IMG/VR virus record: IMGVR_UViG_3300044710_000080
Coordinates: 11,026-75,025 of that record
Reading direction: 5' to 3' (one strand)
From: a virus
DNA length: 64,000 nt
Below the pieces are notes generated by a model. The model saw nothing but the letters and a program-made list of their open reading frames with translations. It was not told the origin of the DNA and did not search any database. The position numbers were made by a program, and so were the translations under genes. This document shows positions 6,928 to 23,788 of this stretch, piece by piece (within the stretch, counting starts at the first letter, position 1; every line of letters starts with the position of its first letter).

Positions 6928-7004
6928 GTGATCTCCTCGGCCAAGGCTGGCCATAGGTTGCTACTTGGCTTAAGATGCCGCTGCACTGGGGATCGAAAAC
7001 TGCC

Positions 7005-8817: not shown

Positions 8818-9192
8818 TCAAGAGCCATCCTGGAGGACCGCGACGATCGAACACCAATCCGGCCACTGCTCAATGACCCGCGCCGTAAGATACACGTTCC
8901 CGTCGGAGAGCGTCAGGAGATCGCCGCCCTTACTCGAGACCCGGATGATCGCGTCAACCTCGCCGTTGAGGTAAATCTTGCGCATCGAGCCCTGGAGATT
9001 GAGGCCCTCGATCTGGCGCAGGTCGCGGTTCGAAAGGTCTTGGACTTGGGCGGTGACGGTCACAGGCGCCGCATAGGATGGGGTAGGGGTTCCGTCCAGC
9101 GCAATCGTCGAGCCTGTGCTAGTCCGTAGCGTCGCCGCCTGCATGGGGTTGACGGCGGAGATCGGTCCCGAAACGATTCCGTGCAGGTTCAC
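8818..9192 (-). CDS. Head closure / stopper protein
   Basis: MNLHGIV..I.AVNP..AQVQ.L..DL..IEGLNLQG..R.IYL.G...R...GGD..V.EQWPDWC. Confidence 0.75.
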   Translation of the reverse strand: MNLHGIVSGPISAVNPMQAATLRTSTGSTIALDGTPTPSYAAPVTVTAQVQDLSNRDLRQIEGLNLQGSMRKIYLNGEVDAIIRVSSKGGDLLTLSDGNVYLTARVIEQWPDWCSIVAVLQDGS

Positions 9193-9377
9193 GCGGCCTC
9201 CTTGCTGCAATGCAACCAATTTTCAATAGACCGCTCTGGATAGCCCGTAAGATTGGCGATGTCTGTCGTATCGAATTTGGCCTCCCGGAACCATAGCCGC
9301 ACGCGAAACGGCATATCGACCCGCGGCACGTAGAGCGGCTTGAAATTCCTGGAGACAGGAAGATGCACCCAAGCCAT
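9189..9377 (-). CDS. Small HTH-like protein
   Basis: FDTTDIANLTGYPERSIENWL. Confidence 0.4.
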   Translation of the reverse strand: MAWVHLPVSRNFKPLYVPRVDMPFRVRLWFREAKFDTTDIANLTGYPERSIENWLHCSKEAA

Positions 9378-9385
9378 TGCCGCTC

Positions 9386-10903
9386 TCACTCGGCGGCGAC
9401 CGGCTCCCGGTGCCGCCTGCGAATCACCGTCCGCGTCATCGCCTCGATCTCGGCGCGCCCGCGCTCCCCGAACTTCCTCCCCACCATAGCAAGATAGGAC
9501 GGCTCGGTGAAGTATGCAGCGAAGGCGTTGTCCCGGAAGTCGAGGATCTCCCGCGAGGTCAAGGCGGCGGTCGGCAATGGGACGGCGTCGAAGCTGTGCT
9601 GCGAGTAACCGGACCACGTCTCCGGCAGTGGCAGGCCCTTGGCAACCGCCTCTGCGTAGAGTGGCGAGCCGGGATAGGCCATCGCGCAATAGAAGTTCGC
9701 GAACTCGCACTGCAGCTCCTCGGCGAGGTCATAGGTCTGATTCATCGTTTCCAGCGTATCGTCCGGGAGCCCGAAGATGAAGTTCCCGATGACGTTGATC
9801 CCGGCCGCCTGGATCGCGCGCACCGTCTCGACAATGTCATCGGACTTGAGCGCCTTCTTCGCCCCGTCGCGGACGTGCTTCGATCCTGACTCGATCCCGA
9901 GTGCGAGCCAGCGGATGCCAGCGGCGCGCATCTTGGCGAGTGTGTGCGGTTTGACGGTATCGACGCGGGCATACGCCCAGATGTTGAGGTCGCGCGCGAA
10001 TGTAAGCCGAGTGAGGCGCTCGCAGATTTCGCCATAGTGCCGTTCGTTGAGAACGAACATTTCATCGACGATCTTGAAAGTGCGCACGCCGTGAGTCCGG
10101 TAGAGCATTTCGACTTCGGCGCAGACCGCGAGCGGCGAGCGCATCCGATAGCGGTTCGTCTGGAACGGCGCGTTGATGCAGCAGAATGAGCATTTGTACG
10201 GGCACCCGAGCGTCGTGTAGATCGAGGCGTAGGGCTTCCGTTTCTCTGGCTCCCCGAGCGTTTGCCAGTTGTGAGCGCGATAGCGATTGACCGGGAGCAT
10301 ATCCCACACGTCGCCGTGCAGTTGCGATAGGTCCTCGATCAGCGGCGCTGATGGGTTGATGATGACCTGCCCTGGCTTCGGGCCGCGCCAGACGAGGCCA
10401 GGAATATCGGCCAGATCAGATCGAGTGAGAACGTACTCATTTTCTTCATTCGATTTGAATAGATGTAGCAGTTCTTCGATCGTGACCGGCCCCTCGCCGA
10501 CGCAAGTATAATCGACCGTCTCCTCGACCATCGTCCGCTCTGGCAGCGCCGAGACATGGCCGCCGATCAGGATCACCGGGACGCGGCAAACCTGCTTGAT
10601 GGCGCGGGCGACAGCGCCGGCTCCCGTCATCTGTTGCGTGCTCGCGCTCGGCTGGTGCCCATAGGCGACAATCGCGCAGAGTCGCGGCTTCCAGAGCGCG
10701 ACAAGGGAACCCACGTCATGCGGGTCATCCTCGGTCGCCTCCATGTCGAGAATCTTGACCGAATAGCCCCGGTCCCGAACGTATCCCGCAATCAGGCGGC
10801 AAAAGAGCGGCGGCTCGATTGCGGTGAGGTTGCTGCCGAGCGCGCCGTAGATTTCCCGGCCAGCGCTGGGGTGGATCAGGAGGAGGTCGAGTTTGTCGGT
10901 CAT
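9386..10903 (-). CDS. Cobalamin-binding radical SAM enzyme (class B methyltransferase-like)
   Basis: N-terminal B12-binding domain (GGHVSALP, GEG), CxxxCxxC (GCPYKCSFC), LGIESG, FIFGLP, PGSPLY. Confidence 0.9.
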   Translation of the reverse strand: MTDKLDLLLIHPSAGREIYGALGSNLTAIEPPLFCRLIAGYVRDRGYSVKILDMEATEDDPHDVGSLVALWKPRLCAIVAYGHQPSASTQQMTGAGAVARAIKQVCRVPVILIGGHVSALPERTMVEETVDYTCVGEGPVTIEELLHLFKSNEENEYVLTRSDLADIPGLVWRGPKPGQVIINPSAPLIEDLSQLHGDVWDMLPVNRYRAHNWQTLGEPEKRKPYASIYTTLGCPYKCSFCCINAPFQTNRYRMRSPLAVCAEVEMLYRTHGVRTFKIVDEMFVLNERHYGEICERLTRLTFARDLNIWAYARVDTVKPHTLAKMRAAGIRWLALGIESGSKHVRDGAKKALKSDDIVETVRAIQAAGINVIGNFIFGLPDDTLETMNQTYDLAEELQCEFANFYCAMAYPGSPLYAEAVAKGLPLPETWSGYSQHSFDAVPLPTAALTSREILDFRDNAFAAYFTEPSYLAMVGRKFGERGRAEIEAMTRTVIRRRHREPVAAE

Positions 10904-11148
10904 CGGACTTCGCGCCCTTCCGCATCACGGAAAATTGCTGGGTAAGAGTCGTTGCCTTCCGGCCAGCATTCGGGACATGGAATCTCGACGGTGGCAGCGC
11001 CTTGGGGATCGGTCGGCGCCCTATCAAAATTGGTCGTTGCTCCACAGCCTGGGCATGTCGCCTTTAACGGGATCACGATTTCTGCCCTGCTGCGGTCAAA
11101 TCCGCAGGCGCGGTCGACCATCAGTTCGATTGGGGAAAGCGTCCTCAT
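10900..11148 (-). CDS. Small Zn-ribbon protein
   Basis: CPGC...CPEC; ATGA coupling on both sides. Confidence 0.5.
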   Translation of the reverse strand: MRTLSPIELMVDRACGFDRSRAEIVIPLKATCPGCGATTNFDRAPTDPQGAATVEIPCPECWPEGNDSYPAIFRDAEGREVR

Positions 11149-11486
11149 GGCACCATCGCCCTCGACTCTTCCCCCGCCGCGCGCTCGACGTCGGCGTCGT
11201 CGTGGTGGGTGGAGAACTCGAAGATGACAGAGTCGCGCAGGCCAGCGAAGCGGTGCCAGGTGCCGGATTCAATATCGACCGAGTCTCCCGGCTGCATGAT
11301 ATGGATAGCGCCGTTCAATTCCATGCGAACTTGGCCGGACTGGAGGTAGAACGTCTCATGCTTCACCGGGTGCCGGTGCAGGCTGCACTGGAAGCCCTTC
11401 CGCAGAACCAGCATCTTGCCGCAGTAGGACTCGTTGTTGACTATCCAGCGTTCCTCGCCCCAGACCTTTTTGACGATCTTCAGCAT
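11145..11486 (-). CDS. Cupin (mannose-6-phosphate isomerase-like C-terminal domain)
   Basis: K.WG.E..I.N...YCGK.L...G..CSLHRH..K.ETFY..SG...G.WHRF..EFST. Confidence 0.8.
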   Translation of the reverse strand: MLKIVKKVWGEERWIVNNESYCGKMLVLRKGFQCSLHRHPVKHETFYLQSGQVRMELNGAIHIMQPGDSVDIESGTWHRFAGLRDSVIFEFSTHHDDADVERAAGEESRAMVP

Positions 11487-11663
11487 CCGGGCTTCCTCAG
11501 GTCGGGCGGCCAAAGCCAGAGTGAGATGCGATGCCATGCTCGGCGCCACCATTGCGGCGGCCCTTCAGCATCGAGCGGCTCTAGTGTTCCGGTCTTGAAT
11601 TTCACTGATCGCGGGTCGCCGGGAAAGTTGCCGAAATAGGCTCTCGCGGCGGCGATCTCTTCC

Positions 11664-12602
11664 TCAGACGTTCCCATTTTGCCCTCGGGGCAGCATCCGC
11701 AGTCCGACTATAAGCTCACGGATGCCGTCGTCCAAGGAGAACTGAGGCCGCCAGCGGGTCGCCTCGATCCGGGCGTTGCTGACCACATAATTCCGCTGGT
11801 CGACATCGGCCCCGACCGGAGCATCGAGGAACGTGAATCCCGGGACGTGCACGGCGATCCGCTCGCACAGCTCGCGCTTGCTGATGTTCGCGTCGGAGAG
11901 CCCGACATTGTAGGGCTTGTCCCGCATCGCCTCGAAGTTCTCGATCCCGTAGGCGAACGCCGCCGCCGCGTCCCGGACGTGCAGGTAGTTCCGCTTGAAG
12001 TGGCTCTCGTAAAGCACGACGGCCCGGTCGGTCATCGCCCGGTGCACGAAGTCGTTCACCAAGAGGTCGAGCCGCATCCTCGGCGACATGCCGAACAGCG
12101 TGGCCAGCCGGAAGCTGATCGCGTTGCCCCGCCCCAGCACAGCCTCCTCGGCGCGCACCTTGGTGACCCCGTAGTGGCTGATCGGGCGGAGCGGCGAGTC
12201 CTCGGTGCACTCGACTCCGGGTTCCCCGATGCCATAGCCGCTGTTCGTGATCGGGATGAGCACGCGCTGGCTGATCGACATGCGGTCGAGCGTGTTGCGG
12301 ATCGCCTCAGTGTTCGTGCTGTGGGCCCCGATGCGGTCGGCCTCGCAGAGCGGTGCGCCGACGAGCGCGGCGAGCGGAATGAACACATCAGCATTCTTGA
12401 GCAATGGCTCGACTACCCGCATGTCCCGGCAGTCACCCCGCACCACGTCGAACGCCTGGTTCGCGCAGAGTGCATTGAGAGGCATCTGGTTCCAGAGGAA
12501 ATTATCGATCACCGTGACGTGGTGCCCTTCCGAAAGCAGGACGCGGACGAGGACACTGCCCAAATATCCCGCCCCCCCGGAGCAAAGCACACGAAATCCC
12601 AT
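11664..12602 (-). CDS. NAD-dependent nucleotide-sugar epimerase/dehydratase/reductase (extended SDR)
   Basis: GGAGYLG, LAALVGAPLC, YGVTK (YxxxK), RLATLFGMSPRMRLDLLVN, DQRNY. Confidence 0.9.
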   Translation of the reverse strand: MGFRVLCSGGAGYLGSVLVRVLLSEGHHVTVIDNFLWNQMPLNALCANQAFDVVRGDCRDMRVVEPLLKNADVFIPLAALVGAPLCEADRIGAHSTNTEAIRNTLDRMSISQRVLIPITNSGYGIGEPGVECTEDSPLRPISHYGVTKVRAEEAVLGRGNAISFRLATLFGMSPRMRLDLLVNDFVHRAMTDRAVVLYESHFKRNYLHVRDAAAAFAYGIENFEAMRDKPYNVGLSDANISKRELCERIAVHVPGFTFLDAPVGADVDQRNYVVSNARIEATRWRPQFSLDDGIRELIVGLRMLPRGQNGNV

Positions 12603-12838
12603 CACGGAATCTCCTTCGCGAGAATGCCGAGCAGGCTCTTCGCCAGAATCTCGGCATCCTGCCGACCCATGATGACGGCGGTGTGGAAGATGTTCCCCTC
12701 CTCCGTCCCAAAGCCCTCGCCGAAAGTGATTCGGACAACCTCCTTCGTCGCACCGACGGTGTGGGTGTTCGTGTAGATCGGCCGCACTGCGCCCCAAGAC
12801 GGACGCGACGCGACGTGGCTCCCGCCGTTCCCGTTCAT
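12602..12838 (-). CDS. Hypothetical protein
   Basis: ORF coupled to the SDR gene. Confidence 0.45.
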   Translation of the reverse strand: MNGNGGSHVASRPSWGAVRPIYTNTHTVGATKEVVRITFGEGFGTEEGNIFHTAVIMGRQDAEILAKSLLGILAKEIP

Positions 12839-12842
12839 AGAC

Positions 12843-12989
12843 TCACCAGAACTTCACGATGAAGTGGATTATGACCCAAGCCACGCCGACCCAGAATGAG
12901 ACAAATCCGATGCAAAAACCCCAGATGATGATTACGGCAGCGAGATCCTTGGGGACCACCTTCTCGGTGAATGGGAATGCGCGCCTCAT
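12843..12989 (-). CDS. Small membrane protein (48 aa)
   Basis: One long hydrophobic segment; ATG overlaps the upstream stop. Confidence 0.45.
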   Translation of the reverse strand: MRRAFPFTEKVVPKDLAAVIIIWGFCIGFVSFWVGVAWVIIHFIVKFW

Positions 12990-14110
12990 AGCGTCCTCCG
13001 GATTACCTCGGCCAGCCGCTTGATTAGGTCTGGCGCTGACCAGGGGGGATTCCCGCAGAACATTCCTGTGACGTGGATTAGATCGGCCTTGGGCGTGGGC
13101 TGGTTCGCCCATGGAAGCCCATAGGGAGATTTTGTAAAGCTCCCGCCAGTCGGAAGGCGGCAGTCGATCGAGGCCGCCCGGAGGGCTCCTACTAGCCGCC
13201 GGCGGGCCTCCTGGCCGGCATCCACGGTGAAGTGGAGCGAAAATGGGCTCGGGCTGCCGTTCCAGGGCGGGAAGGTGACCGGGAGGCTCGCCGCCAGTCG
13301 CCGGAACAGGGCGTCATTTTCTCGCCGTGCCTTGATGAAGCCGGGGAGCTTGCGCAGTTGCTCGCGGGCGACCGCGGCGCGGATTTCGTCGGAGCGGACG
13401 TTGAATCCGAAAATTTCAAATCGGTATTCGTCCTCGAACCGCTCCGCAGGCTGAACGTCGCGCAGCCAGCCGTGCGCTCTCAGCATCCGGCAGAGCCGAT
13501 TGCATTCGTCGTCGTCGGTCAGCACCGCGCCGCCCTCGATGGCTGATACCTGATGGCTGAAGAAAAAGGATTCTGTCGCCATCAGCCCGAAGGCACCCGT
13601 CGTCTTGCCATTCGTCGAGGCCCCAAGCGATTCGCAGTCGTCGTTGAGGAAGTAGGCGTCGAGCACCCCGGCCACCGTGTTCAGCGTCCCGAGCTGTGCC
13701 GGATTGCCGAGTATCGAGCAGCCGACCACGAGCCGGATACCGGCCGGATCCTCTAATCCGAACGGGTCGGCGTTCCAGCCGTCGTCCACATCCATCAGGA
13801 CAAGATCGAGGCCGTGCTGCACGAGCGGGGCGTAAGTCGTCGCCCACGCGATCGCCGGCACCAGCGCCTTGTCCCCCCGCTTGAGCGGCTTCTCGGCGCG
13901 ATGGAACAGCGCCGCCGTCGCCACGAGGTTCGCGCTCGAACCCGAGTTGACCATCACGCAATGCCGGCGGCCGTGGTAGTCCGCGAGTTCCCGCTCGAAT
14001 GCCGCGACCTCGGGACCGGCGGTCAACCGCCCGGACGCGAGCACGCGCTCGATGGCCGCGCGCTCCTCGGTAGACCACGCGGAAAATGCTGTCGGATGGT
14101 CATAGGTCAT
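12986..14110 (-). CDS. DegT/DnrJ-fold PLP enzyme, His-type (ColD/RfbH-like NDP-4-keto-6-deoxyhexose 3-dehydratase)
   Basis: VNSGSSANL, DCESLGA, and SFFFSHQVSAIEGG, where His replaces the Schiff-base Lys; LRAHGW.R. Confidence 0.8.
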   Translation of the reverse strand: MTYDHPTAFSAWSTEERAAIERVLASGRLTAGPEVAAFERELADYHGRRHCVMVNSGSSANLVATAALFHRAEKPLKRGDKALVPAIAWATTYAPLVQHGLDLVLMDVDDGWNADPFGLEDPAGIRLVVGCSILGNPAQLGTLNTVAGVLDAYFLNDDCESLGASTNGKTTGAFGLMATESFFFSHQVSAIEGGAVLTDDDECNRLCRMLRAHGWLRDVQPAERFEDEYRFEIFGFNVRSDEIRAAVAREQLRKLPGFIKARRENDALFRRLAASLPVTFPPWNGSPSPFSLHFTVDAGQEARRRLVGALRAASIDCRLPTGGSFTKSPYGLPWANQPTPKADLIHVTGMFCGNPPWSAPDLIKRLAEVIRRTL

Positions 14111-14638
14111 TTTGTGGCCACCCATCGCCATCGTCCGTTACGGCGCGGCTGAGCACCTCCCATCGATGGCCTATACAAACCGGGACGCCCCTTCCGATGA
14201 CGATGCCAGGCGGAAGTCGGCCACCATGTGCCGCGAACGCGGATCATGCTCATGCGAATGATTCGCTCAACAGAGTCTCGTTCGCCCGCCGACTGATATG
14301 GCGAAGAGCAACTTCGGCTCCCGTGCCGACCTTCGCATGGGGCAATTCTTCATCGGCCAGATCGGCCACGAATTGGAGCGCCTTCCGCAATCGGCTTACC
14401 TCCGCTTGGTATTTTTCCACGCGGGTAACTGCGGAATCTTTGCTGAACCGTTCGACTTCGTTCTCAGTAGTCATAGTCAAGCCCTCCGTGTCCATTTGCT
14501 TCGTCGCACTTGCGCAGCAACCAGCGCCAGAACCATCGCGGCCGGCGGTCGTTCCAGTCCATGCGCTCGGCCAAATCCCATAACCGCTTGAAACGCGCAT
14601 TACGGACGTTGTGGTCAGGTAGCGCGATTCCGTCTCGA

Positions 14639-15157
14639 TTAGGCATAGAGTTCCGTCCTCTCGATCAGCAGCGTGCTCCCCTCCCGCTGCAGCGCCTTCC
14701 CGTACTCCGGCACGATCCGGTCGGCGGAATCAAGCCGGACGACCTCGACGGTTTGCAGCATTGAGCAGAATGCTTCAGTGAAGTCCCCGAGGTGTTGCGG
14801 GCCGGGATCGAGCGGCACCGGAGTTGCGATTGCCGTTCTCACGATAACGCGCGGCCGCCACGTCGAGTATCGCGGCAGGGCGTCGAGATGCAATACGAGT
14901 TGCGACATGGCGAGCAGCAGGAAGTTGACCCGCGGATAGCACGTCACCGGGATCAGCCCCGTCAGCGACATGCCCGTCGCCATTCCGAGCTGAGCATCCT
15001 CCATGACGGGAAGCTCAAGCAGCTTCTCAGGCGCAATGCCGCGGAACGTTTTCGCCATAGCCGTGCCTTCCGTCATGGCCTGGCCCATGAAGATCGACCT
15101 CGGCTCTTCGGCAATCATCAGCATCGCCGCCCGCAGTGCATCGAAGTAAACGCTCAT
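14639..15157 (-). CDS. ThDP-dependent E1-beta / transketolase pyrimidine-binding subunit
   Basis: FMGQ, ELPVMEDAQLGMATG, YPR.NFLL.A..QLV, PGPQH. Confidence 0.85.
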   Translation of the reverse strand: MSVYFDALRAAMLMIAEEPRSIFMGQAMTEGTAMAKTFRGIAPEKLLELPVMEDAQLGMATGMSLTGLIPVTCYPRVNFLLLAMSQLVLHLDALPRYSTWRPRVIVRTAIATPVPLDPGPQHLGDFTEAFCSMLQTVEVVRLDSADRIVPEYGKALQREGSTLLIERTELYA

Positions 15158-15252
15158 TCCTCGTCCTCCTCATGGGGCGCGTAGATTCCCCAGAGCACGA
15201 GCATGACGCTCCCGACCGCGAGCACCCCGACGATGGCGAGAACCCCGTACAT
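15154..15252 (-). CDS. Tiny membrane protein (32 aa) between the two ThDP subunits
   Basis: MYGVLAIVGVLAVGSVMLVLWGIYAPYEEDEE; overlapping start/stop at both ends. Confidence 0.4.
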   Translation of the reverse strand: MYGVLAIVGVLAVGSVMLVLWGIYAPHEEDEE

Positions 15253-15854
15253 TAGAAGTCCACACGCTTGCCGGCGCCCGAATGTGGAAATGGTAAAACG
15301 TACTCATAACGCCGAGTTAAACGCGCATCCGACCCTTCGCATCCATCGTCCCAAGTCTTTCGCGTATCGGTGCAAACGCTCAAACCGTTATCTTCGACGA
15401 CGAACGTGATCGGCAGGCAATGCCCGCGCGCATAGTTCCAGCATTCGTGATAGATGCCCGTGCGACTTGTCATGTCCCCGAGAAAGGCCCAACAGCGCTC
15501 ATCCTTCCCCGCTCGCTTGATCGCCCATGCGATCCCGAGCGCGATGGGCAGAACCCCGCCGACGATGGCGGATGAGATCACCCGACGCGCGGGAAAATTC
15601 AACGCAATCGAATGGCCTTTCAAAATCGCGGCCCGCAGTTCCTCTGGCGGCACGCCCTTGAGCAAACAGTGGTAGTGCGACCTCCAAGAAACTGCGCACC
15701 AGTCCTGTTCACGCACGTCGGCGAAGATGTCCAGCAAGGCCTGCTCATTGCCGCCGGCCAGATGTATGGGGGACCGGATGCGTGCCGCATTGAAGTCAGC
15801 AGCCACGGATTCCTCAAACGCGCGGAGAGATTCGACAGTGTGGTTCGTGATCAT
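15252..15854 (-). CDS. ThDP-dependent E1-alpha-like subunit
   Basis: PIHL.GGNE, WRSHYH.LLKG, SSAIVGG, ThDP motif GDM...G..HE..NYA...LPI.FVVEDN. Confidence 0.85.
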   Translation of the reverse strand: MITNHTVESLRAFEESVAADFNAARIRSPIHLAGGNEQALLDIFADVREQDWCAVSWRSHYHCLLKGVPPEELRAAILKGHSIALNFPARRVISSAIVGGVLPIALGIAWAIKRAGKDERCWAFLGDMTSRTGIYHECWNYARGHCLPITFVVEDNGLSVCTDTRKTWDDGCEGSDARLTRRYEYVLPFPHSGAGKRVDF

Positions 15855-16585
15855 TCGCCGAACACATTCCAATTGCCAAACTCTTCGATGAGGTCTGCGG
15901 AGAAGCAATCAATTTTATGATCGGACCGACCACCATCGAAAGCGGCGAGAGCATTCTTCCCGGTCGCGCGGACGCCGTTAACGGCGTGGGTCGCCTTCAA
16001 CCGTCGAAGCTGAACGGCGTCCGGTTCATCCGAGTTCCCATCTCGTATGCGCGTTTCGTTCTGCCAGATGTAGGCGTTGGCAAGTTGAATCACGACGATT
16101 GCCTTAATCTGCTCGGCGCGAAGCGGCGGACGTTCCGCGAGGATCAGATCAATGTCGTGCATGATGAGTTTCAGCTCGGCGCGGTAGTCATCGCGGTGCT
16201 CATCGATGAAAATTTCCTTCTGGAGCACGATGGTGAGGCGGTCGACGAGGTCGCTCAATGTCGGCAAATACTTGCGCTCGTTACCTGGAAACATCGGGCG
16301 CGCCAGAAGGGAACCGAATCCCCATTTGCCGGATGCGTAGGCTTCCCGCGTCTCGGGATCGAACTTGACGCCTTGGGCTTCCAGCGCCTCAAGAATGAGC
16401 TTCTGATGCGCGGGAGAATTTTGCGGCACGTAGGTTCCCCCGTCCGCGCACCGTATCGGGCCGGGCGCCCCACCTCGTTCGTGCTCGTCGAATCGGAGGC
16501 CGCAGCGGGCGCAGATCGGGACCATACTGGAGGGGGAGAGGGGGATGTCGGGGCCGTGGTCGTCGCGGCCGTGCTGGTCGGTCAT
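15851..16585 (-). CDS. Hypothetical protein (N-terminal Cys motif, C-terminal helical domain)
   Basis: CARC..H..C; RKYLPTLSDLVDRLTIV..KE..N..IW..E..IR; coupled to E1-alpha. Confidence 0.55.
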   Translation of the reverse strand: MTDQHGRDDHGPDIPLSPSSMVPICARCGLRFDEHERGGAPGPIRCADGGTYVPQNSPAHQKLILEALEAQGVKFDPETREAYASGKWGFGSLLARPMFPGNERKYLPTLSDLVDRLTIVLQKEIFIDEHRDDYRAELKLIMHDIDLILAERPPLRAEQIKAIVVIQLANAYIWQNETRIRDGNSDEPDAVQLRRLKATHAVNGVRATGKNALAAFDGGRSDHKIDCFSADLIEEFGNWNVFGE

Positions 16586-16854: not shown

Positions 16855-16882
16855 ACTATAGGGAAAATTGTCCCGGTGTCTA
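16855..16882 (-). promoter_or_regulatory. Promoter with operator in the spacer, upstream of the sugar-biosynthesis block
   Basis: TAGACA-CCGGGACAATTTTCCC(16)-TATAGT. Confidence 0.65.
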
Positions 16883-17212: not shown

Positions 17213-17548
17213 TCAGGTCAGGCCTTCGATCTTCCCGTTCGTGACGTGGAAGTGCGCGTTGCATCCGCCGGTGAGTTGGACCGAACTTGAGCCAGCAACC
17301 AGCGTCAGGTCGTCGATCCCGGTCCCGGTCAGGTTCCAGCGCCCCGGTTGCGGCGACACGTCCTGCGGGACTGAGGGCGACCAGCAAATGACCGAATGCA
17401 CGCCGATCCCATCTGGATGCCCGAGAAAGCACTTCGGGCAAAGGAACATCACGCCGTCCGCACCCGCAATCACGTCGCCCACATCTTGAAATGTGTGATG
17501 GCTTTCCAGTTTGAGGAACTTCGCCTCTAGCTCGCGGAGTGTCGTCAT
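17213..17548 (-). CDS. DUF6527-like Cys/His metal-binding protein
   Basis: FLCPKC..H...W...G...LTL..S......C.AHF.V.NG.I. Confidence 0.55.
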   Translation of the reverse strand: MTTLRELEAKFLKLESHHTFQDVGDVIAGADGVMFLCPKCFLGHPDGIGVHSVICWSPSVPQDVSPQPGRWNLTGTGIDDLTLVAGSSSVQLTGGCNAHFHVTNGKIEGLT

Positions 17549-18483
17549 GCCGCCACCGCCTTCTTCACCCGCGCCGGGTCGAGCACCCCGATATGGTCCA
17601 GCGCCCGCCCGACGCAGACCTCGGGCGGGAACTTCGCCTTGAACTTCTCGAATTGCGAGGCCCACACCCCGCGCCAGGCCGCCCGCACCAGCAGGCATTG
17701 GCTGTAGAAGCCCTCGATCGTGTCGGAGAATCGCACAACTTCATCCCATGGCTTCGACAGCAAATGCGGCTCCGCGACCACCGGGCGCCCAAGGCAGAGC
17801 GCCGTGTTACATCGGGACGACGATACAAGGCCCATCGATTCGAACTTCCTCACCTGGATGATGACCTTCGCCCGCCGCATCGTCTCGTCGCGTTCCTGCT
17901 GCGTCGCGAAGTCGACCACCAGCCGCACCGCCTTCTCCGTCCCCACCCGCTTCGCCAGCCGCTTCAAGATCGAGTGCCGCCGCGGTGTGAGCGACCCGTA
18001 GAACCCGAACTCGTAGTCCGGCTCCTTGTCGGTGATGCGCACCAGCGTCGGCGCATACCCGAGCTCGATCGGCGCCGCCGGCGCGAATTGCCCGTACCAC
18101 TTCGTCACATGCTCGCCTGGCACCAGATGCAGGATCCCCTCGCAATACTTCGCCGCATCCGGGAACCGCTCCTGCCGGTAGACCATCTCCCGCTGCGTGC
18201 CCTGGTTGAAGCCCCGTTCGCTCGGCTCCTCCGTCGCCAGGATGATCCAGCGCGCGCCTTGCTGCGCCGCATTCGCTACCAGATTAACGCTGTCCTTCGT
18301 GAAGCCTTCGACAATGACGTTGATGCCATCGGCCCCGCTGACAAGTTTGGTATTTGAGGCATCCCATACTGCTTTGTGGCCCAAGGCATTGATTTGATGG
18401 CCGAAAATTGCAATTACGTCCTCAAGAGAACGCTGTCCTACTTCACTGTGGTTACCTAAAAAAAAGCAAAATTGTTGGCCCAT
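17545..18483 (-). CDS. Glycosyltransferase-like protein (GT-B / CgeB-like C-terminus)
   Basis: FGFYGSLTPRR..IL, RD..M..AKVII, SSSRC..AL..G.PVVAE. Confidence 0.6.
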   Translation of the reverse strand: MGQQFCFFLGNHSEVGQRSLEDVIAIFGHQINALGHKAVWDASNTKLVSGADGINVIVEGFTKDSVNLVANAAQQGARWIILATEEPSERGFNQGTQREMVYRQERFPDAAKYCEGILHLVPGEHVTKWYGQFAPAAPIELGYAPTLVRITDKEPDYEFGFYGSLTPRRHSILKRLAKRVGTEKAVRLVVDFATQQERDETMRRAKVIIQVRKFESMGLVSSSRCNTALCLGRPVVAEPHLLSKPWDEVVRFSDTIEGFYSQCLLVRAAWRGVWASQFEKFKAKFPPEVCVGRALDHIGVLDPARVKKAVAA

Positions 18484-18926
18484 TATTTCACCTCGAAAGC
18501 AATAGCATTGATGGTTTCTGAGGTGTGAATCCATGGCTTGTCAAACCCTTTGCGGGCTATCGTCGATGCCTTCAACGGTGGGCTCGTGATCGTCGCCACT
18601 GATTCGCGAAGCTCGCCGCTGATCTGCTCACCGACCATGGCCATTGCGGGCTTGGCGTCGAAGTCGGTTTGTTTGAGAGCGGCGGCGACGGCCTCGCCCC
18701 ACTTCGGGGATTTGGCGGCGATCATGTTGCGAAAGGCGGGCCTGGGCGGCTGGCCGCGCGAGGGCACGCCGTACTCGGTGAGAGCGGCGCGGAGGGGAAT
18801 CGACATGCCGTCTGAGCCCGTGGCTCCTTCGAGCCATCCGACCCGGAGGTTTGCGGGCGTGGTGATGTGCTGCGCGAGCTCGTTCAGCTTTTGCCGCAAT
18901 TTCTCTCCCCCGCTGATGGTCGCCAT
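18483..18926 (-). CDS. Neck / virion morphogenesis protein (HK97 gp10-like)
   Basis: LRVGWLEGAT, EYG....PPRP.FR, PPL..STIARKGFDKP; a structural gene stranded inside the glycosylation island. Confidence 0.75.
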   Translation of the reverse strand: MATISGGEKLRQKLNELAQHITTPANLRVGWLEGATGSDGMSIPLRAALTEYGVPSRGQPPRPAFRNMIAAKSPKWGEAVAAALKQTDFDAKPAMAMVGEQISGELRESVATITSPPLKASTIARKGFDKPWIHTSETINAIAFEVK

Positions 18927-19361
18927 TTTCAAAACCCCTGGATACCGAGCAAGTGTAGCAGACCGCAGAGGAAGGCGATGTAGAGAACTTGCCCGAAGGT
19001 GAGGTCGAAGAGGAAGATGGCGTCGCTCATCGGGGCATCCGTCCGGCTTTTCTTCCCCGCGTGCCGGACAACGCGGTTACAAACCTGCGGCGTGAGACAA
19101 GTCCAAGGACGCACGGCATCGCTAGATGCTCTCCGCAGGACCGGAAGCTAATTGCGCCTCCACCATAGCCTGATGCCAGGGCGCAAGTCATGATAGGGGC
19201 AGTGGGGTTCATCCTCCAAGACCTCAAACTGTTGGCGCCAGAACTCCATCGCCGCGCGCACGAAAGATACCCGATAAAGAACCGATCGATTACGCGACCG
19301 CGCCATGCGCCTTGTGATAATCTTGTGTGTTGCCGCCAAATTTATCATCCGAATGACTCGC

Positions 19362-20540
19362 TCATCGCAGCCACGGCAGCGCCCCTTCCGCCTCCTCCAG
19401 AGTCTCGTATCGGACAATGCCCGGCCGGTTGCGGTGCGATGGCGTTGCGAGGTCGAGCGAGCCGAGCCGGTGCGGCACCACGTAGACCCCGCCATCGTAG
19501 GAGACAAGGTTCATTGAGCCGACGGTGGCGAGGAGTTGGGGATTCGTCGGGGGCGCGAAGATGGCCCCTCCCGGCTTCTCCGTCGGGAGGGGCGCGGTTT
19601 TATCGTCGGACCCCTGAGGGCTCGTTCGTAGTCCTCCATGCTGCACCACCTCGCTTCCCTGCTGGAGGCCAATTCGCTCGAAGACTGAGGTCCAGAACGG
19701 CCGCGCGGCGTGCCGCTCGAGCATCTTGCCCCGCATCCGCTCCGCCATTTCGCGGTCGGCGTCGCCACGGGAAGGGGCGGCCCGGATGATCTGCTCTGCG
19801 TGGTCGTCGGAGCCATACTCGAGGAAATCGACCCCGGGCTCGAACCACGTCCGCGCCGGCGAGTCACTCGGCTCGAGCAGGCAGGCCCCGGCGAGCGAGG
19901 CCTCGACGAACCGGCCTTTGACGTGCCGCTTCTGGCCGGTGCCGGTCCGAGCGTCGTTGATGACGATCCGGCAACCCGAATAGAAGGCGCAGACCTCCGG
20001 GTAGGAAACCCATGCCCCCGGGTTGAGCCATACGAGGCCGCTAGATGCGAGTCGCTGCAGGATGGGGGTCCTAGCACCCCCACCCCCGCAAAAACCCGCC
20101 AGCGTGCCCCGCTGGGGCCAGGGGAGGGGGTTAAACATGCCGGGATCGACCGGGGTGAGCGCCACAAGGCCGAAACGGGCGATCGGGTTCTCCCGGGATC
20201 CGTCGATTGCGACCTGGAGGCGGAACGCCCCGGCGCGATCGTATTCCTCGAGGAGCGGCCACCAGGGCGGGTCGGCGGCGTCGGAGCAGATGTGCACCAT
20301 CGGCGCCACCCCGTTCGCCCGCCAGAGGGCGTCCGTCGTCGGGATCGGGCACCCGTCCTGGTGCGGCATGCAGGCGCCGATGTAGACGATGACATCCGGG
20401 CGGTGCTGCTCGGCGATAGCGCCAACATCGGCGCCGAAGACGTCATACCGGACGACCGCAGTATCGGGGACAACCGCCGTGAACGAGCGGACGAGTTTTT
20501 CAGTGTCGGGCGTTCTTGTAGTGAGGCAAAGGCCCTTCAT
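19362..20540 (-). CDS. Glycosyltransferase (CgeB/Glyco_trans_1_2-like) with C-terminal extension
   Basis: C-terminal Y..FY..CRIVIN..HVKGRFVEA.LAGACLLE..WFEPGVDFLEY; paralog of 21521-22546. Confidence 0.7.
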   Translation of the reverse strand: MKGLCLTTRTPDTEKLVRSFTAVVPDTAVVRYDVFGADVGAIAEQHRPDVIVYIGACMPHQDGCPIPTTDALWRANGVAPMVHICSDAADPPWWPLLEEYDRAGAFRLQVAIDGSRENPIARFGLVALTPVDPGMFNPLPWPQRGTLAGFCGGGGARTPILQRLASSGLVWLNPGAWVSYPEVCAFYSGCRIVINDARTGTGQKRHVKGRFVEASLAGACLLEPSDSPARTWFEPGVDFLEYGSDDHAEQIIRAAPSRGDADREMAERMRGKMLERHAARPFWTSVFERIGLQQGSEVVQHGGLRTSPQGSDDKTAPLPTEKPGGAIFAPPTNPQLLATVGSMNLVSYDGGVYVVPHRLGSLDLATPSHRNRPGIVRYETLEEAEGALPWLR

Positions 20541-20972
20541 GATTTTGCTGCTCGTGTGCGAAGGATGATGTTCAATCCTTCATCTGAGCACGCACGTTCC
20601 GTGAGATCGTTGTAAAGTACCGCCGCCTCATACTGCGATTTGCAGACGACGGTGAAGTGAACCTCACTCAAAATCATCGAAATCCGTCCAGCCTGAAATG
20701 AGAATGGTTCGCTCATGCCGTCACCTTTATTGCGGGTGGAGGTGGACGAGGCCGAGACCGCAGCGACCGATCTACCCAGAGACGCCCCGGTTCTAAGATC
20801 AGGAAACCGGGTATAGGCCGAGCCGTAGGCCCTCTCACTTCGCTGAGACGACATTCGCGCATGAGCCCTTTCCGGACCAATGCTTCCCCCGTCTGCCAAT
20901 TGTCAGGCCAACGGTCAATCCACCCCCGCGGTTCGCGAGCAGCGAAATGCAGCATCTCGCGTTGAGGTGCGC

Positions 20973-21524
20973 TCAACCGCATAGCTCTGCAAACCGTTTG
21001 AATGGCACGCCGCCGGGTTCGCGATATTCAGCCCACGGCCAGCGGCGCAGTATCGATTCGTCCTGAGCTCTGAGTATCGCGGTACGCTCGCCGTCCGGAG
21101 CGAGTGCGAAAATCCACCGATCCTTGACGCTCTCCTGCTGGCCCTCAGACCATGCGCCGTTGCCAGTAGGCGGTGGACGAAGGCGATGCCAAGTCGGCGC
21201 CCACCACCAATTGCAGGCCCGGTAAAGCGTCCCGGTATGGCCTACCGATGGGTCCGAATAGCTGACGATGGTCGTCGCATCCGGCCGGATGGCGCGCAAC
21301 GCGCGCACGAACGCCGCCCATTGTCGGCTGCCGTCGTTGCGGATTCCGCGGATAAGGCACCAGCGCACCAGCTCGAGCCAGTGGCCGGGAAGCCGACGCG
21401 CAGTCGGCGATGCAATCACGATGGCGCCGAACTCGTCCCTCCACGCAACACCGCGATCAACTGCGCCGAGATAGTGGTTCTCGGCGAGCAGTCCAGCGAT
21501 TGATCGGCAAGAAGTCCAAGTCAT
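20973..21524 (-). CDS. mom: Mom-like (GNAT-fold) DNA adenine modification protein
   Basis: NHYLG, LELVRW, IVSYSDP..GHTG.LYRACNW, as in Mu Mom-family proteins. Confidence 0.7.
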   Translation of the reverse strand: MTWTSCRSIAGLLAENHYLGAVDRGVAWRDEFGAIVIASPTARRLPGHWLELVRWCLIRGIRNDGSRQWAAFVRALRAIRPDATTIVSYSDPSVGHTGTLYRACNWWWAPTWHRLRPPPTGNGAWSEGQQESVKDRWIFALAPDGERTAILRAQDESILRRWPWAEYREPGGVPFKRFAELCG

Positions 21525-22546
21525 GCCAGCACCTTCATCCCGATCCGCTCCAGCACCTTACCCCAGAACGCGGAGGGGGAGTGGCGCTCGATGACCTTGC
21601 GGCGGAGCGAGAGCGCCATTTTCTGCGCCTCTTCTGGATTCCCTTCAAGCCATTCCAAGCCGCGTCGAATATCGGAGATTCCTTGATCCGGCCCTTGATA
21701 GCAGCGGTAATCTTTGCCCATCTCAAACCACTGACAAGTGGGCGACATTTCATTCTCGAAGAGCACCGCCCCCGCGAGCGCCGTCTCTATCACCCGCGCC
21801 TTGACGTGCATCCGGTCCCCGCTCCCGGTCGCGGCGTGGTTCCAGACGCAACGGCAGGAAGAGAGGAAATCGCGATAGCCGGCTTGGCTCGGGTCGGTGT
21901 GGTCGCGGTCGCTGATCGTCAGCAGGCCGGCGCCGAGGAGCGAACGGATCGCCGGCGTGCGCGGGTGCAGATAGCCGCCCGGGGGCGGGTCGCCGAGCTG
22001 GTAACTGCCGCGGAAGCCGAGCCGCACCGGCCGCTCCGCCCACGGCCGCGGCGGATCCGGAAACCCGGCGGGGTCGATCGGGCAGAGCCCCGTCATGCCG
22101 AACTCGCCAATCGGCCCATCCCTCACGCCGTCGATGTTGACCTGGAGCGCGAAGCAGCCCGCATCCTGATAGCGCCGCAGCTGCGGCCACCAGTCGGCCT
22201 CCGACCCATCGCAGCACAGGTGCACGAACGGGTGCCGTCGGCCTATCTCGCGGAGCACATCGACATTCGGCATCAGCGCCCCGCCAGCATCGCAGCAGCC
22301 GATCATGAGCACCCAATCCGGCCCCTGCGAATCCACAAGGGCCGGGAGGCGCTCGAAATAGCGATGGTCGGGCAGAACCTCGATCCCCTCTGCGGAGAAT
22401 TGCCGCCGGTGCTGCTCGTAATCCCCCGCGTTGTGCACGTTCATGAGGTCATAGACGATGGGCTTGACCTCGTGCCCGAGGCCGCGCAACGGCTCGTAGA
22501 TCGGCGGGCAGCTGGTGGAGAATGTCCGGAGGACCGTTACGCGCAT
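21521..22546 (-). CDS. Glycosyltransferase (CgeB/Glyco_trans_1_2-like)
   Basis: GFRGS, Y.DFL..CR.VWN, HVKARVIE..LAGAVL.E..WFE.GKDY. Confidence 0.7.
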   Translation of the reverse strand: MRVTVLRTFSTSCPPIYEPLRGLGHEVKPIVYDLMNVHNAGDYEQHRRQFSAEGIEVLPDHRYFERLPALVDSQGPDWVLMIGCCDAGGALMPNVDVLREIGRRHPFVHLCCDGSEADWWPQLRRYQDAGCFALQVNIDGVRDGPIGEFGMTGLCPIDPAGFPDPPRPWAERPVRLGFRGSYQLGDPPPGGYLHPRTPAIRSLLGAGLLTISDRDHTDPSQAGYRDFLSSCRCVWNHAATGSGDRMHVKARVIETALAGAVLFENEMSPTCQWFEMGKDYRCYQGPDQGISDIRRGLEWLEGNPEEAQKMALSLRRKVIERHSPSAFWGKVLERIGMKVLA

Positions 22547-22815
22547 CAGCCTGTCCCCGCCCGTTCATGTTCGGGCGCGCCTTGCTCGCCGCCCCACGTT
22601 GGACGCACGCCGGTTTCCTGTTCGATGATGTCGCCGACGGCATCGCGCATTATGTCCATAAACGCTTGCTTGCGAACCGGATGATCGCGCACGAACGCCA
22701 TCGCGATCGATCCGAGCCAAAGCGCCCCCTCCATAGTATCTGGCATCGCGTAGTAGGCGTTCCAGTTGTTGCCCTCTACGCGCAACGAAAGACGACCAAT
22801 CTGCTGTTTTTTCAT
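22546..22815 (-). CDS. Hypothetical phage protein
   Basis: IGRLSLRVEG..WNAYYA.P.TMEGA..LGSI; coupled to its neighbours. Confidence 0.55.
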   Translation of the reverse strand: MKKQQIGRLSLRVEGNNWNAYYAMPDTMEGALWLGSIAMAFVRDHPVRKQAFMDIMRDAVGDIIEQETGVRPTWGGEQGAPEHERAGTG

Positions 22816-23588
22816 TGCGGCTTCCCCTTCCAGATCGTCCGCGCCCCGGCCGGCAGCATGTCGAGCGGGACATCAACGTTGAACCCGCGCAGACTCGTCA
22901 CGTCATAGCCCGCCCCGTACCGATTCGCCCACCGGGAGAGGAAGAGGGCCATGTCGGCCGCCGTCGTATGGGCTTCCCCAATCCAGTCAGCACCGCCGCT
23001 CAATACTGGCATCTTCCGAGCGTCGTCGGCCAGTACCCGCACCAGCGGCTCGCGCGACCACTCACACCGCCCGCCCGCGCTCCATACCCGCATCCCGAGA
23101 TCGCAGTCCGCGAAGCCGACCCGATAGTCCCCAGTGAGCCAGAGGCCACGCGCAGCGTCGCGTCGGCGCATCAGCGGGAAGTAGGGATAGTAGTTGCCGA
23201 AGACGGTCCCGATTCGCAGCGTAAAGGCTTGGCGCAGCCCGAGGCAGAATGGCGATGGCGGGCCGCCTCGGTCTGCAAACGCGAACTCCCGCGCGAGAAA
23301 ATTGTCGAGCGCAATCTCATCCCATCCCGGCACGAACTCGTGGTCGTCGACCCAGGCGAGGACGAAGTCACCAGTCGTCTTTCGCAGCGCAGCCTCATGC
23401 GCGGCATTAGCGCCTTCCGAGTCGCCCTCCTTTATCCAGACGACGCGGACGCGCCGGTCGAACTTGAGTGCCGGCTCGTAAGGGGAAACGACGATGATCT
23501 CGACATTGTCGTGCACCGTCGCTCGGATATTGTCGAGCGCGCGCTCCAGCGCGGGCGGGTGCAGGGAAGGGAGGGTGATCGAGATCAT
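22812..23588 (-). CDS. Family 2 (GT-A) glycosyltransferase
   Basis: ISITLPS, EIIVV, G...A...A....GD.V...VDD metal motif, ADCDLGMR. Confidence 0.75.
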   Translation of the reverse strand: MISITLPSLHPPALERALDNIRATVHDNVEIIVVSPYEPALKFDRRVRVVWIKEGDSEGANAAHEAALRKTTGDFVLAWVDDHEFVPGWDEIALDNFLAREFAFADRGGPPSPFCLGLRQAFTLRIGTVFGNYYPYFPLMRRRDAARGLWLTGDYRVGFADCDLGMRVWSAGGRCEWSREPLVRVLADDARKMPVLSGGADWIGEAHTTAADMALFLSRWANRYGAGYDVTSLRGFNVDVPLDMLPAGARTIWKGKPQ

Positions 23589-23759
23589 CGCTCAGCCCAG
23601 CGTCGGAGGTCCGGGCAGAATGCCTATTTCTTCGAGCCATATGGTGAAGGCCAAAAGGCCAAAGCTGCAGAGCAATATGCTACCCACGAATAGAATGGAG
23701 AACAGCAGCGGATGGGCATCTTGAAAGCAGATCATGAGATTTAACCTCCTGATCCGCCG

Positions 23760-23788
23760 ATCATAAGGGAAAATCGTCCCCGTGTCTA
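23760..23788 (-). promoter_or_regulatory. Promoter with operator in the spacer, upstream of the glycosyltransferase block
   Basis: TAGACA-CGGGGACGATTTTCCCT(17)-TATGAT. Confidence 0.75.

Follow-up and report, generated by a model that had tools for sequence, protein, structure and literature searches.

The stretch of DNA analysed here, called the window throughout, comprises 64,000 nucleotides (bases 11026-75025 of IMG/VR record IMGVR_UViG_3300044710_000080), and all positions are given in window coordinates unless stated otherwise. The source record is the complete 75,025-bp genome of an uncultured phage with 127-bp direct terminal repeats, a GC content of ~62% and structural genes of the E217/XM1/Pam3 myophage type; the genes of its first half lie nearly all on the minus strand. 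Between the genes for a DUF4054 head-tail adaptor and a head-closure protein lies an island encoding sugar-tailoring enzymes and glycosyltransferases (GTs), all on the minus strand. The original prediction had described this enzyme set from the sequence alone, and every enzyme was recovered in its place as an intact open reading frame (ORF); none contains a transmembrane (TM)-grade hydrophobic stretch (Kyte-Doolittle), as had also been claimed. A Mom-family gene, a conserved protein of 244 amino acids (aa) and two promoter-like sites had been overlooked in that first reading. The principal genes of the island are the following.

9386-10903, minus strand: B12-binding (class B) radical S-adenosylmethionine (SAM) enzyme, 505 aa; Pfam PF02310 B12-binding 49.9 bits, PF04055 Radical_SAM 61.6 bits
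11145-11552, minus strand: cupin, 135 aa; Cupin_2 E 1.2e-12, Lyx_isomer, MannoseP_isomer; phrog_7851
11664-12602, minus strand: extended short-chain dehydrogenase/reductase (SDR), proposed nucleoside diphosphate (NDP)-heptose C4-dehydrogenase, 312 aa; PDB 6vo6 E 1e-101, 343 bits
12986-14131, minus strand: ColD-like His-type pyridoxamine phosphate (PMP)-dependent sugar 3-dehydratase (DegT family), 381 aa; PDB 2gms ColD 231 bits, residues 8-377
14639-15157, minus strand: minimal E1-beta-like thiamine diphosphate (ThDP) Pyr-domain subunit (E1b), 172 aa; Transket_pyr E 1.9e-8
15252-15854, minus strand: minimal E1-alpha-like ThDP PP-domain subunit (E1a), 200 aa; E1_dh E 3.8e-16; phrog_34187
15851-16585, minus strand: 244-aa protein with a variable Cys-rich N-terminus and a conserved ~140-aa C-terminal four-helix domain (alignment A3, structure model)
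17545-18483, minus strand: GT-B fold glycosyltransferase, 312 aa; structure model with pLDDT 91.3, Foldseek
19362-20540, minus strand: CgeB-like GT (PF13524), 392 aa, with a ~100-aa C-terminal extension; 46.4 bits, cut-off 25
20973-21524, minus strand: Mom-family protein (GNAT-like DNA-modification family), 183 aa; PF25680 46.8 bits vs 27.1; phrog_1384 E 7e-15
21521-22546, minus strand: CgeB-like GT (PF13524), 341 aa; 34.6 bits, cut-off 25
22812-23588, minus strand: divergent GT2-like (GT-A) glycosyltransferase, 258 aa; PF00535 22.7 bits vs cut-off 23.3

Five of these genes, encoding the SDR, the His-type DegT enzyme, E1a, E1b and the radical SAM enzyme, form a core cassette that is conserved in phages and bacteria. 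Single-sequence scans of viral and genome collections with E1a found nothing and an alignment query was needed; with it, 358 viral stretches and 158 from bacterial genomes were confirmed, and 80 of each were used to count neighbours within 10 kb of E1a. E1b lies near E1a in 78/80 bacterial and 79/80 viral loci (157/160), a DegT homologue in 75/80 and 61/80, a 6vo6-like SDR in 55/80 and 55/80, and a B12 radical SAM enzyme in 57/80 and 53/80, respectively. The cupin was found in 11/80 viral cassettes. CgeB-like GTs are present in 0/80 bacterial loci and the GT-B enzyme in 2/80. Metagenome protein sets hold ~6000 further E1a relatives of the same size. The pathway had been thought giant-virus-like and unexpected in a phage of this size, a view that these numbers overturn: because the cassette recurs in hundreds of loci, the island is one case of a recurrent phage feature and not a singular one. 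No published description of the five-gene cassette was found in the literature searched.

The position of the island was analyzed relative to the following virion genes.

37193-38935: portal
30212-31219: Mu-F-like protein
27864-29432: DUF2213 protease/scaffold
26885-27826: cement protein, XM1 gp53/E217 gp24-type
25736-26839: major capsid protein
23786-24247, minus strand: DUF4054 head-tail adaptor, left-hand island boundary in gene order; PF13262 E 2e-12
18483-18926, minus strand: Neck1/tail completion protein, structural gene stranded within the island; phrog_222 E 5.8e-32, 33 relatives
8818-9192, minus strand: head-closure/collar-like head protein, right-hand island boundary in gene order; phrog_1912 E 1.4e-35
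5137-6954: sheath-like protein, 605 aa

The gene at 18483-18926, already suspected to be a stranded neck gene, belongs to the phrog_222 Neck1 family and splits the island into ~4.9 kb in the DUF4054/Neck1 junction and ~9.3 kb in the Neck1/head-closure junction. In the 33 viral loci encoding a Neck1 relative that served as our synteny sample, the usual gene order is DUF2213, cement, capsid, a homologue of the ORF at 25070, DUF4054, Neck1, head closure, a homologue of the ORF at 7583, and sheath. The head-closure gene, which has a weak Pfam match to E217 gp28, directly follows Neck1 in many relatives, and DUF4054, Neck1 and head closure are often just 6-100 bp apart, so that both halves of the island are recognizable as insertions. 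Within the neck module, the DUF4054/Neck1 and Neck1/head-closure junctions are both hot spots for insertions, and the island is intact accessory cargo. In other relatives, different cargo occupies these junctions or the position one gene beyond them, and E1a is encoded anywhere in only 2 of the 12 related records that are ≥90% complete. Megablast searches with the island found no match among 50,697 phage records, and there is no cultured relative to draw on. The synteny search that the original prediction had called for was productive: the neck module of at least 11 phages of this lineage holds the cassette plus GTs of these families, at one or the other of the two junctions. The cassette follows DUF4054 in L117, L118, L134 (the same contig as L021), L138, L155, L189 and L126, and lies between Neck1 and head closure in L122, L124 and L145, whose order is that of the window (Neck1, GT-B, 244-aa protein, E1a, E1b, DegT, SDR, radical SAM, head closure). 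L161 begins within the GT-B gene and then continues in the window order.

The closest characterized relatives of the core enzymes define the chemistry to be expected. The ORF of the SDR is over-extended upstream, its true start being at about M66 of the long ORF, at 'MGFRVLCSGGAGYLGS', which gives the coordinates 11664-12602. The protein matches PDB 6vo6 over its full length (residues 2-305) with ~55% identity and 343 bits, all other PDB matches reaching at most 84 bits, and it contains the Rossmann GxxGxxG (GGAGYLGS) and catalytic YxxxK (YGVTK) motifs. The depositor's molecule name for 6vo6 is 'putative sugar-nucleotide epimerase/dehydratease'; we take 6vo6 and 6vo8 to be Cj1427 of C. jejuni, and propose that the SDR would oxidise GDP-heptose at C4 in a Cj1427-like, alpha-ketoglutarate-dependent manner. 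A Cj1427 structure paper is cited in PMC10680097. In the DegT enzyme, His193 ('FSHQ') aligns with the catalytic His188 of ColD, a position occupied in aminotransferases by the Lys that forms the Schiff base. This column holds a His in 74/75 bacterial and 63/63 viral DegT copies of the cassette (137/138), which are either of a ColD-like 'SHQ' type, as in the clade of this phage, or of an RfbH/E1-like 'AHH' type. Deoxygenation at C3 of an NDP-4-keto sugar is therewith a supported prediction for the enzyme.

The ThDP subunits are unusually small. E1b consists of the Transket_pyr region without the C-terminal domain of E1-beta, and its Glu53 is ≥95% conserved in 158 homologues; E1a matches the pyruvate dehydrogenase (PDH) E1 alpha model TIGR03182 with 83.8 bits, covering only model positions 12-180 of 315, and its ThDP motif GDM-X27-N is invariant in the family alignment A2. 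Because both subunits are shorter than full-length E1 alpha and E1 beta, we regard the pair as a distinct minimal family that would work like the characterized enzymes rather than being a member of their family. The PDH-E1 alpha/beta pairs Plm8/Plm9 and AviB1/B2 attach a pyruvate-derived C2 branch at C4 of NDP-4-keto sugars, with YerE as a functional counterpart in C2 branching (PMC4802897), and by analogy we infer that the phage pair adds a pyruvate-derived C2 unit to an NDP-4-keto sugar. A phosphonopyruvate or sulfopyruvate decarboxylase was considered for the split pair and rejected, the matches being to E1_dh and Transket_pyr and not to TPP_enzyme_N/C. Cyanophages S-SM2 and P-TIM68 are in culture and could serve to study the minimal ThDP enzyme, as both encode it in a form with alpha and beta fused (39% identity to E1a).

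The radical SAM enzyme has an N-terminal B12-binding domain and a radical SAM core with the CxxxCxxC cluster motif CPYKCSFC at residues 234-241. Its best NCBIfam match is HpnJ, with 158 bits against a cut-off of 577; HpnJ and BchE are the top matches, and PDB matches reach at most 65 bits. Since all NCBIfam scores fall far below their cut-offs, the protein is equivalent to no named enzyme (GenK, Fom3, HpnP/R, TsrM and others). The cupin is possibly a sugar isomerase or epimerase, to judge from its family matches.

The genes that accompany the cassette elsewhere bear on its substrate. An HddA-like kinase and an HddC-like nucleotidyltransferase are encoded within 10 kb in 66/80 and 56/80 bacterial loci, and GmhA and GmhB also flank the cassette. 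In the isolate Herbaspirillum lusitanum the order is radical SAM, GHMP kinase, SDR, E1a, E1b, His-type DegT, NTP transferase, SIS protein, 6vo6-like SDR, HAD phosphatase and GT, where the four added genes correspond to the GmhA/HddA/GmhB/HddC set for GDP-heptose. Herbaspirillum isolates have prophage-like copies of the bacterial cassette only. A placement of the cassette in flagellin-glycosylation islands of Nitrospira was not reproduced: in the two of five Nitrospira genomes whose positions were compared, the flagellin gene does not adjoin the cassette, lying ~580 kb off on seemingly one contig in the first and apparently on a different contig in the second. The related phage L005 encodes, after Neck1, HldE-like and GmhA-like proteins, a CgeB-like GT, a SPASM radical SAM protein and E1a/E1b, while the related phage L017 encodes an FkbM methyltransferase and a TPR-GT9 heptosyltransferase-like protein. 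In cyanophage S-SM2 the fused E1ab gene (L035, GU071095.1 149421-150629) lies among genes for two phosphoheptose isomerases, a sugar kinase, nucleotidyltransferases and GT11s. Cj1427 and a ColD-like C3-dehydratase (HS:5) together convert GDP-heptose into GDP-3-deoxy-4-keto-heptose in vitro (PMC10680097). Because the SDR matches 6vo6 and GDP-heptose synthesis genes flank the bacterial cassettes, the likely substrate is host GDP-heptose, oxidised by the phage. The original prediction was broadly right about the general chemistry (His-type C3 deoxygenation, a ThDP-dependent C2 branch and a class-B radical SAM step) and probably mistaken about the starting sugar, for which it had chosen a host NDP-4-keto-6-deoxyhexose; as the phage would make its own 4-keto intermediate, C6 need not be deoxygenated.

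In the route that we propose, host GDP-heptose would first be oxidised to a 4-keto sugar by the phage SDR, and the ColD-like PMP enzyme would then take off the C3 hydroxyl to give GDP-3-deoxy-4-keto-heptose. Next, the C4 carbonyl would receive two carbons derived from pyruvate through the minimal E1 alpha/beta pair, and the B12 radical SAM enzyme would methylate an unactivated carbon, with the cupin and the virus-only four-helix protein as presumed accessories. In the end, the glycan would be assembled or handed over by the four soluble, phage-specific GTs (GT2-like, two CgeB-like and GT-B), its target being a phage-specific acceptor in the cytoplasm, in all probability proteins of the virion in the late phase of morphogenesis. 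Close characterized precedent exists for the first two steps only. The gene identities, their intactness, the catalytic motifs, the synteny and the distribution are what the analysis shows; the substrate, the order of steps, the product and the acceptor are what we infer from the comparisons.

Among the cassette loci, the four-helix protein is confined to viral ones. In alignment A3 its conserved domain has 33 invariant columns, mostly polar, and the structure model consists of four long helices (pLDDT 81.5). It was found by tblastn and hidden Markov model searches in 37/80 viral and 0/80 bacterial loci. Heptose-activation genes (HddA/HddC/GmhA/HldE-like) are present in 0/37 viral loci with the four-helix protein versus 27/43 without it (loci L116-L195; Fisher p 2e-10, uncorrected), and the remaining cassette is near-identical, with 'X-SDR-rSAM-E1a-E1b-DegT' versus 'SDR-rSAM-E1a-E1b-HddA-DegT' (X, four-helix protein; rSAM, radical SAM enzyme). 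The two states interleave in the E1a+E1b tree with at least four well-supported switches, a phylogeny-corrected test being underpowered with its 4 well-supported independent pairs. Foldseek found no PDB match to the domain at E≤1e-3, the best VIA-align (wide) result (Z 7.4, helical hairpins) is within the noise for helical bundles, the ESM atlas returned only DUF6165/DUF4254-like models (TM 0.4-0.5), and a PDB sequence search with the 244-aa protein was uninformative. The mutual exclusivity is a testable lead on how phages use host sugar-nucleotide pools. A bolder and rather doubtful version of the route would have the phage coat its particle with an undescribed 3-deoxy, C4-two-carbon-branched, C-methylated heptose, the four-helix protein replacing the heptose-activation genes in phages that lack them, for example if it seized the heptose nucleotides of the host or diverted their supply.

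A GT assignment is supported for all four GT-like ORFs, by Pfam in two cases, by a GT-B fold model in another and by a GT2 profile in the last, and the gene decay that had been feared is not seen. The two CgeB-like GTs are paralogous, as claimed from the outset (36% identity, E 2e-51), and a 54%-identical copy of the one at 21521-22546 is present in L021/L134. The GT-B protein has no Pfam or PHROG match. It belongs to a family of 544 homologues at E≤1e-3; among the 120 of these that were listed, identity is 58-88% and none has a Pfam domain, and tblastn against the 50,697 phage records gave no match. Its model shows two Rossmann-like domains and has 331 PDB matches at E≤1e-3 (Foldseek), led by GlgM, Gtf3, GtfC and SenB, of which Gtf3 and GtfC are protein O-glycosyltransferases; the top viral fold matches are giant-virus GTs, including mimivirus L138. 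The GT-B gene adjoins Neck1 in L018, L003, L122, L124 and L145, and one 76-kb contig encodes an 85%-identical GT-B protein plus a 65%-identical E1a. The possibility that it is a third CgeB-like paralogue was rejected, there being no detectable BLASTP similarity to either CgeB-like GT. For the GT2-like protein, in which D81-D82 is invariant, 4/59 homologues carry PF00535, and the family profile A4 (24 members) has PglI (E 9e-5), 6yv7, DPMS, GalT1 and SpsA as top PDB matches, with non-glycosyltransferases only in the bottom two of its 13 rows (E 0.5 and 0.93). The Mom-like gene between the two CgeB-like GT genes has a weak match to PDB 8bv8 Mom, the PDB sequence search being otherwise uninformative. 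It is absent from every related locus searched, and is thus probably independent cargo in the same hot spot.

Two promoter-like sites were located in the island.

16855-16882, minus strand: TAGACA-16-TATAGT around the dyad GGGAAAATTGTCCC (16861-16874), 10/12 consensus match
23760-23788, minus strand: TAGACA-17-TATGAT around the dyad GGGAAAATCGTCCC (23767-23780), 10/12 consensus match

Both rank above every other sigma-70-like site in the region and coincide with a dyad, GGGAAAAT(T/C)GTCCC, placed between the hexamers. The dyad GGGA-N6-TCCC, mostly in the form GGGAAAAT(T/C)GTCCC, has 8 copies in the window versus 1.8 expected (16861, 23767, 37175, 41896, 42467 and 51564, also 16309 and 51481), and has the look of an operator/promoter regulon covering the whole phage, the island included. 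The 16855-16882 site would drive the sugar-tailoring half and the 23760-23788 site the GT half.

Taken as a whole, the reading of the island as neck-module cargo comprising a GDP-heptose-tailoring cassette and GTs that act on virion proteins has, in our estimate, a probability of about one in two. That the acceptor is phage-specific can be argued from the near absence of the phage GT families from the bacterial loci, from the head-neck operon position in at least 11 relatives, and from the two phage-type promoter-like sites, with their genome-wide dyad, that head both island halves; a cytoplasmic acceptor, as originally predicted, is likewise supported as a prediction. Virion proteins are favoured more weakly and indirectly, by the position, by the Gtf3/GtfC and giant-virus GT fold matches and by precedent: GTs embedded in a virion structural module are a feature of phage virion glycosylation systems, seen here in the genes, and mycobacteriophages are an established case of virions glycosylated by GTs from the structural module (Freeman 2023, as cited in PMC11256854). 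Several points weigh against this reading. The complete 75-kb genome has no SIS, NTP-transferase/nucleotidyltransferase or GHMP-kinase gene for heptose activation, so that a host nucleotide sugar is needed, as had been foreseen, and most Gram-negative hosts make ADP-heptose rather than GDP-heptose; for both reasons the GDP-heptose supply is only presumed. The Cj1427 identity of 6vo6 is an assumption that leans on the depositor's molecule name, the 'SHQ' subtype of the DegT enzyme is nearest to an enzyme whose natural substrate is GDP-4-keto-6-deoxymannose, and E1a and E1b are about half the length of characterized AviB/Plm8-9 type proteins (E1 alpha ~320-365 aa). There is neither a second SDR nor a reductase that could complete a 4-C-(1-hydroxyethyl) branch, not all class-B radical SAM enzymes are methylases, and no published biochemistry of the five-gene core was found in the literature searched. 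The Foldseek matches of the GT-B protein also include the DNA glucosyltransferases AGT/BGT of T4 and the phage HY126 GT, and soluble GT-A/GT-B enzymes commonly use lipid-linked acceptors.

The last point would suit remodelling of the host envelope, in which the cassette would drain or convert host GDP-heptose and the soluble GTs would act on undecaprenyl-linked intermediates of lipopolysaccharide, capsule or S-layer, altering the surface of the infected or lysogenic cell (for example for superinfection exclusion or to prevent re-adsorption of progeny), the virion not being the target. This interpretation, which we consider unlikely, draws on the bacterial cassettes in polysaccharide-type clusters with rml-like genes and GTs, on the cyanophage copies in sugar clusters outside structural modules, on the temperate-type genes of the phage (LexA-like repressor, ERF, RusA) and on the island having promoter-like sites of its own, although their dyad is the phage's own regulon motif, common to other phage operons. 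It is difficult to reconcile with the fact that the phage GTs are nearly without counterparts beside the bacterial cassettes, that the cassette in the at least 11 relatives always lies within the head-neck operon, and that no flippase, polymerase, ligase or Gtr-type gene was found among the island ORFs, much as the original prediction had stated. A hexose substrate is a separate matter, since it leaves the same acceptor question: GDP-mannose or host GDP-4-keto-6-deoxymannose would be turned into a branched 3-deoxy- or 3,6-dideoxy-hexose (yersiniose-like). Here the similarity of the DegT enzyme to ColD (substrate GDP-4-keto-6-deoxy-D-mannose), the missing heptose-activation genes, the weak similarity of the cupin to mannose-6-phosphate isomerase and GMP_PMI, and the far greater commonness of GDP-mannose than of GDP-heptose in hosts stand against the full-length match of the SDR to 6vo6, the heptose kinase, guanylyltransferase, isomerase and phosphatase genes found beside the cassette in most bacterial loci and in 27/80 of the viral ones, and the HldE-like and GmhA-like genes of related neck-island phages. 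In addition, 4,6-dehydratases presumably carry a catalytic acid where the SDR reads TNSGYG, and we hold the hexose route to be distinctly improbable.

Hypermodification of DNA, with the GTs glycosylating a base before packaging (a DpdA 7-deazaguanine derivative or a Mom-like adenine derivative) as anti-restriction armour, has circumstantial appeal given that a Mom-family gene lies between the CgeB-like GT genes, that the phage has DpdA and two DNA methyltransferases, that a copy of the promoter dyad at 37175 lies just before the 36856-37080 ORF and DpdA, and that the GT-B fold resembles, among others, T4 AGT/BGT and the phage HY126 GT. Heptosylated 5-hydroxymethylcytosine (5hmC) has also been reported in phage DNA (bioRxiv 10.1101/2023.12.21.572611). 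All known DNA glycosylation, however, needs a hydroxyl-bearing base supplied by a ThyA homologue or by a C5-methyltransferase plus TET (PMC13326640). The complete genome has no C5-methyltransferase (PF00145) or ThyA homologue (PF00303), in searches whose positive controls matched, and the TET/Tet_JBP search (PF12851) gave no match, nor did its positive control. With no hydroxylated-base pathway found in the complete genome, DNA is disfavoured as acceptor. The Mom-like gene falls outside the conserved system, since none of the related cassettes contains it, glycosylated forms of deazaguanine or adenine are not known, and the linkage of the cassette is to virion genes rather than to those for replication or modification; altogether we regard glycosylated phage DNA as very improbable and continue to favour virion proteins.

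Some further features of the genome concern virion proteins or DNA modification. A Thr/Gly/Ser/Val-rich module of ~65-75 aa ('...GTGV..N..I..QLTG..GGTGTY.V...') is common to virion-type proteins with 38-52% identity, being present in the cement protein at 26885-27826 (two copies), the sheath-like protein at 5137-6954, the 245-aa protein at 7583-8320 and a 487-aa protein upstream of the window (genome positions 8834-10297); cement, sheath, terminator-like and fibre-like proteins are among its carriers. The module was rejected as a dedicated acceptor, as it also occurs in relatives whose complete genomes have no cassette and is not specifically coupled to the island. A 259-aa Gly/Ser/Asn-rich protein without family match (24261-25040) has homologues at varying positions (L155:10732, L156:4436, L118:2920, L023, L028-L030), within the sugar cassette in two phages and between Neck1 and head closure in others, and could be a decoration or acceptor protein or merely further cargo of the hot spots. 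The DpdA-family gene (7-deazaguanine DNA transglycosylase, 36076-36852) adjoins an FtsK-gamma-like gene (36856-37080), with a weak MazG-like ORF (34205-34555) nearby; as no QueC/D/E-type match was found among the neighbouring ORFs scanned, any deazaguanine precursor would be host-derived. The N6_N4 DNA methylase at 44277-45695 and the MT-A70 methylase at 48714-49421 have in common a 34-aa C-terminal stretch with 68% identity and are otherwise unrelated. Together with DpdA and the Mom-like gene, the two methyltransferases indicate that the phage modifies its own DNA.

Among known systems, the capsular GDP-heptose modification of C. jejuni (PMC10680097) shares with the island a 6vo6-like SDR and a His-type 3-dehydratase, and the bacterial copies of the cassette are flanked by GmhA/HddA/GmhB/HddC-type genes as well. 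The C. jejuni pathway ends with epimerases and C4-reductases and has no ThDP carboligase or B12 radical SAM enzyme, whereas the phage island has no C4-reductase, no RmlC-type epimerase and no heptose-activation genes. It should be kept in mind that this likeness depends on our taking 6vo6 to be Cj1427. Plm8/Plm9 (paulomycin) and AviB1/AviB2 (avilamycin) resemble the island in having separate alpha (PP) and beta (Pyr) ThDP subunits, encoded beside a sugar 3-dehydratase and a 4-keto-forming SDR, with the ThDP motif and the catalytic Glu kept (PMC4802897). The island differs in its 200- and 172-aa subunits, where roughly the second half of E1 alpha and the last domain of E1 beta are missing, and in its sugar, probably GDP-heptose instead of a dTDP/CDP-deoxyhexose. 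As described in PMC11256854, mycobacteriophages (Che8, cluster F) also encode soluble GTs associated with virion genes, with a proposed cytoplasmic decoration of capsid or tail proteins; they use host nucleotide sugars directly, without a sugar-tailoring pathway, and have actinobacterial hosts. The clusters for phage DNA glycosylation (T4 AGT/BGT; those linked to 5mYOX or ThyA homologues, including heptosyl-5hmC) likewise combine GT-A/GT-B GTs with sugar-activating or tailoring genes. In contrast, the island lies in the neck module and not beside DNA-metabolism genes, and no hydroxylated-pyrimidine enzyme was found, the control of the TET search having failed.

If the favoured reading is true, tailed phages of Gram-negative bacteria would commonly decorate themselves, or another phage-specific target, with an unusual heptose-derived sugar, and virion glycosylation, so far shown for mycobacteriophages, would extend to a large group of environmental phages, with a bearing on phage stability, host recognition and immune recognition. 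Because the cassette is present in many bacterial genomes, working out the core would reveal a new surface sugar of bacteria too. Both the minimal split ThDP enzyme and a radical SAM enzyme of class B that acts on a nucleotide sugar would be attractive biocatalysts.

The island also contains several small ORFs.

9189-9377, minus strand: 62 aa, reality uncertain; weak coding score, no PHROG match
10900-11148, minus strand: 82 aa, double-CxxC zinc-ribbon-like; start and stop overlap the neighbours; no family match, none in related loci
12602-12838, minus strand: 78 aa; coding score 29, no homologue in related loci
12843-12989, minus strand: 48 aa, one TM-like stretch, reality uncertain; Kyte-Doolittle 19-residue maximum 2.39, no relatives found
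14250-14495, minus strand: 81 aa
16588-16818, minus strand: 76 aa
16880-17212, minus strand: 110 aa, basic; GC3 0.89, no Pfam or PHROG match
17213-17548, minus strand: 111 aa, CxxC protein, separate cargo; homologues at unrelated positions in L026 and L122
18929-19114, minus strand: 61 aa with a hydrophobic stretch, uncertain
22546-22815, minus strand: 89 aa; one homologue, in L185

Two or three of the small ORFs of the island are TM-like and of doubtful reality. The ORF at 17213-17548 is, to judge from the scattered positions of its homologues, a small mobile gene and not a member of the cassette. Elsewhere in the window, a GIY-YIG plus NUMOD3 homing-endonuclease-like gene (40215-40886) lies between the ORFs at 38968-40218 and 40889-41419, which have no Pfam match, and may have been inserted in or beside the terminase genes.

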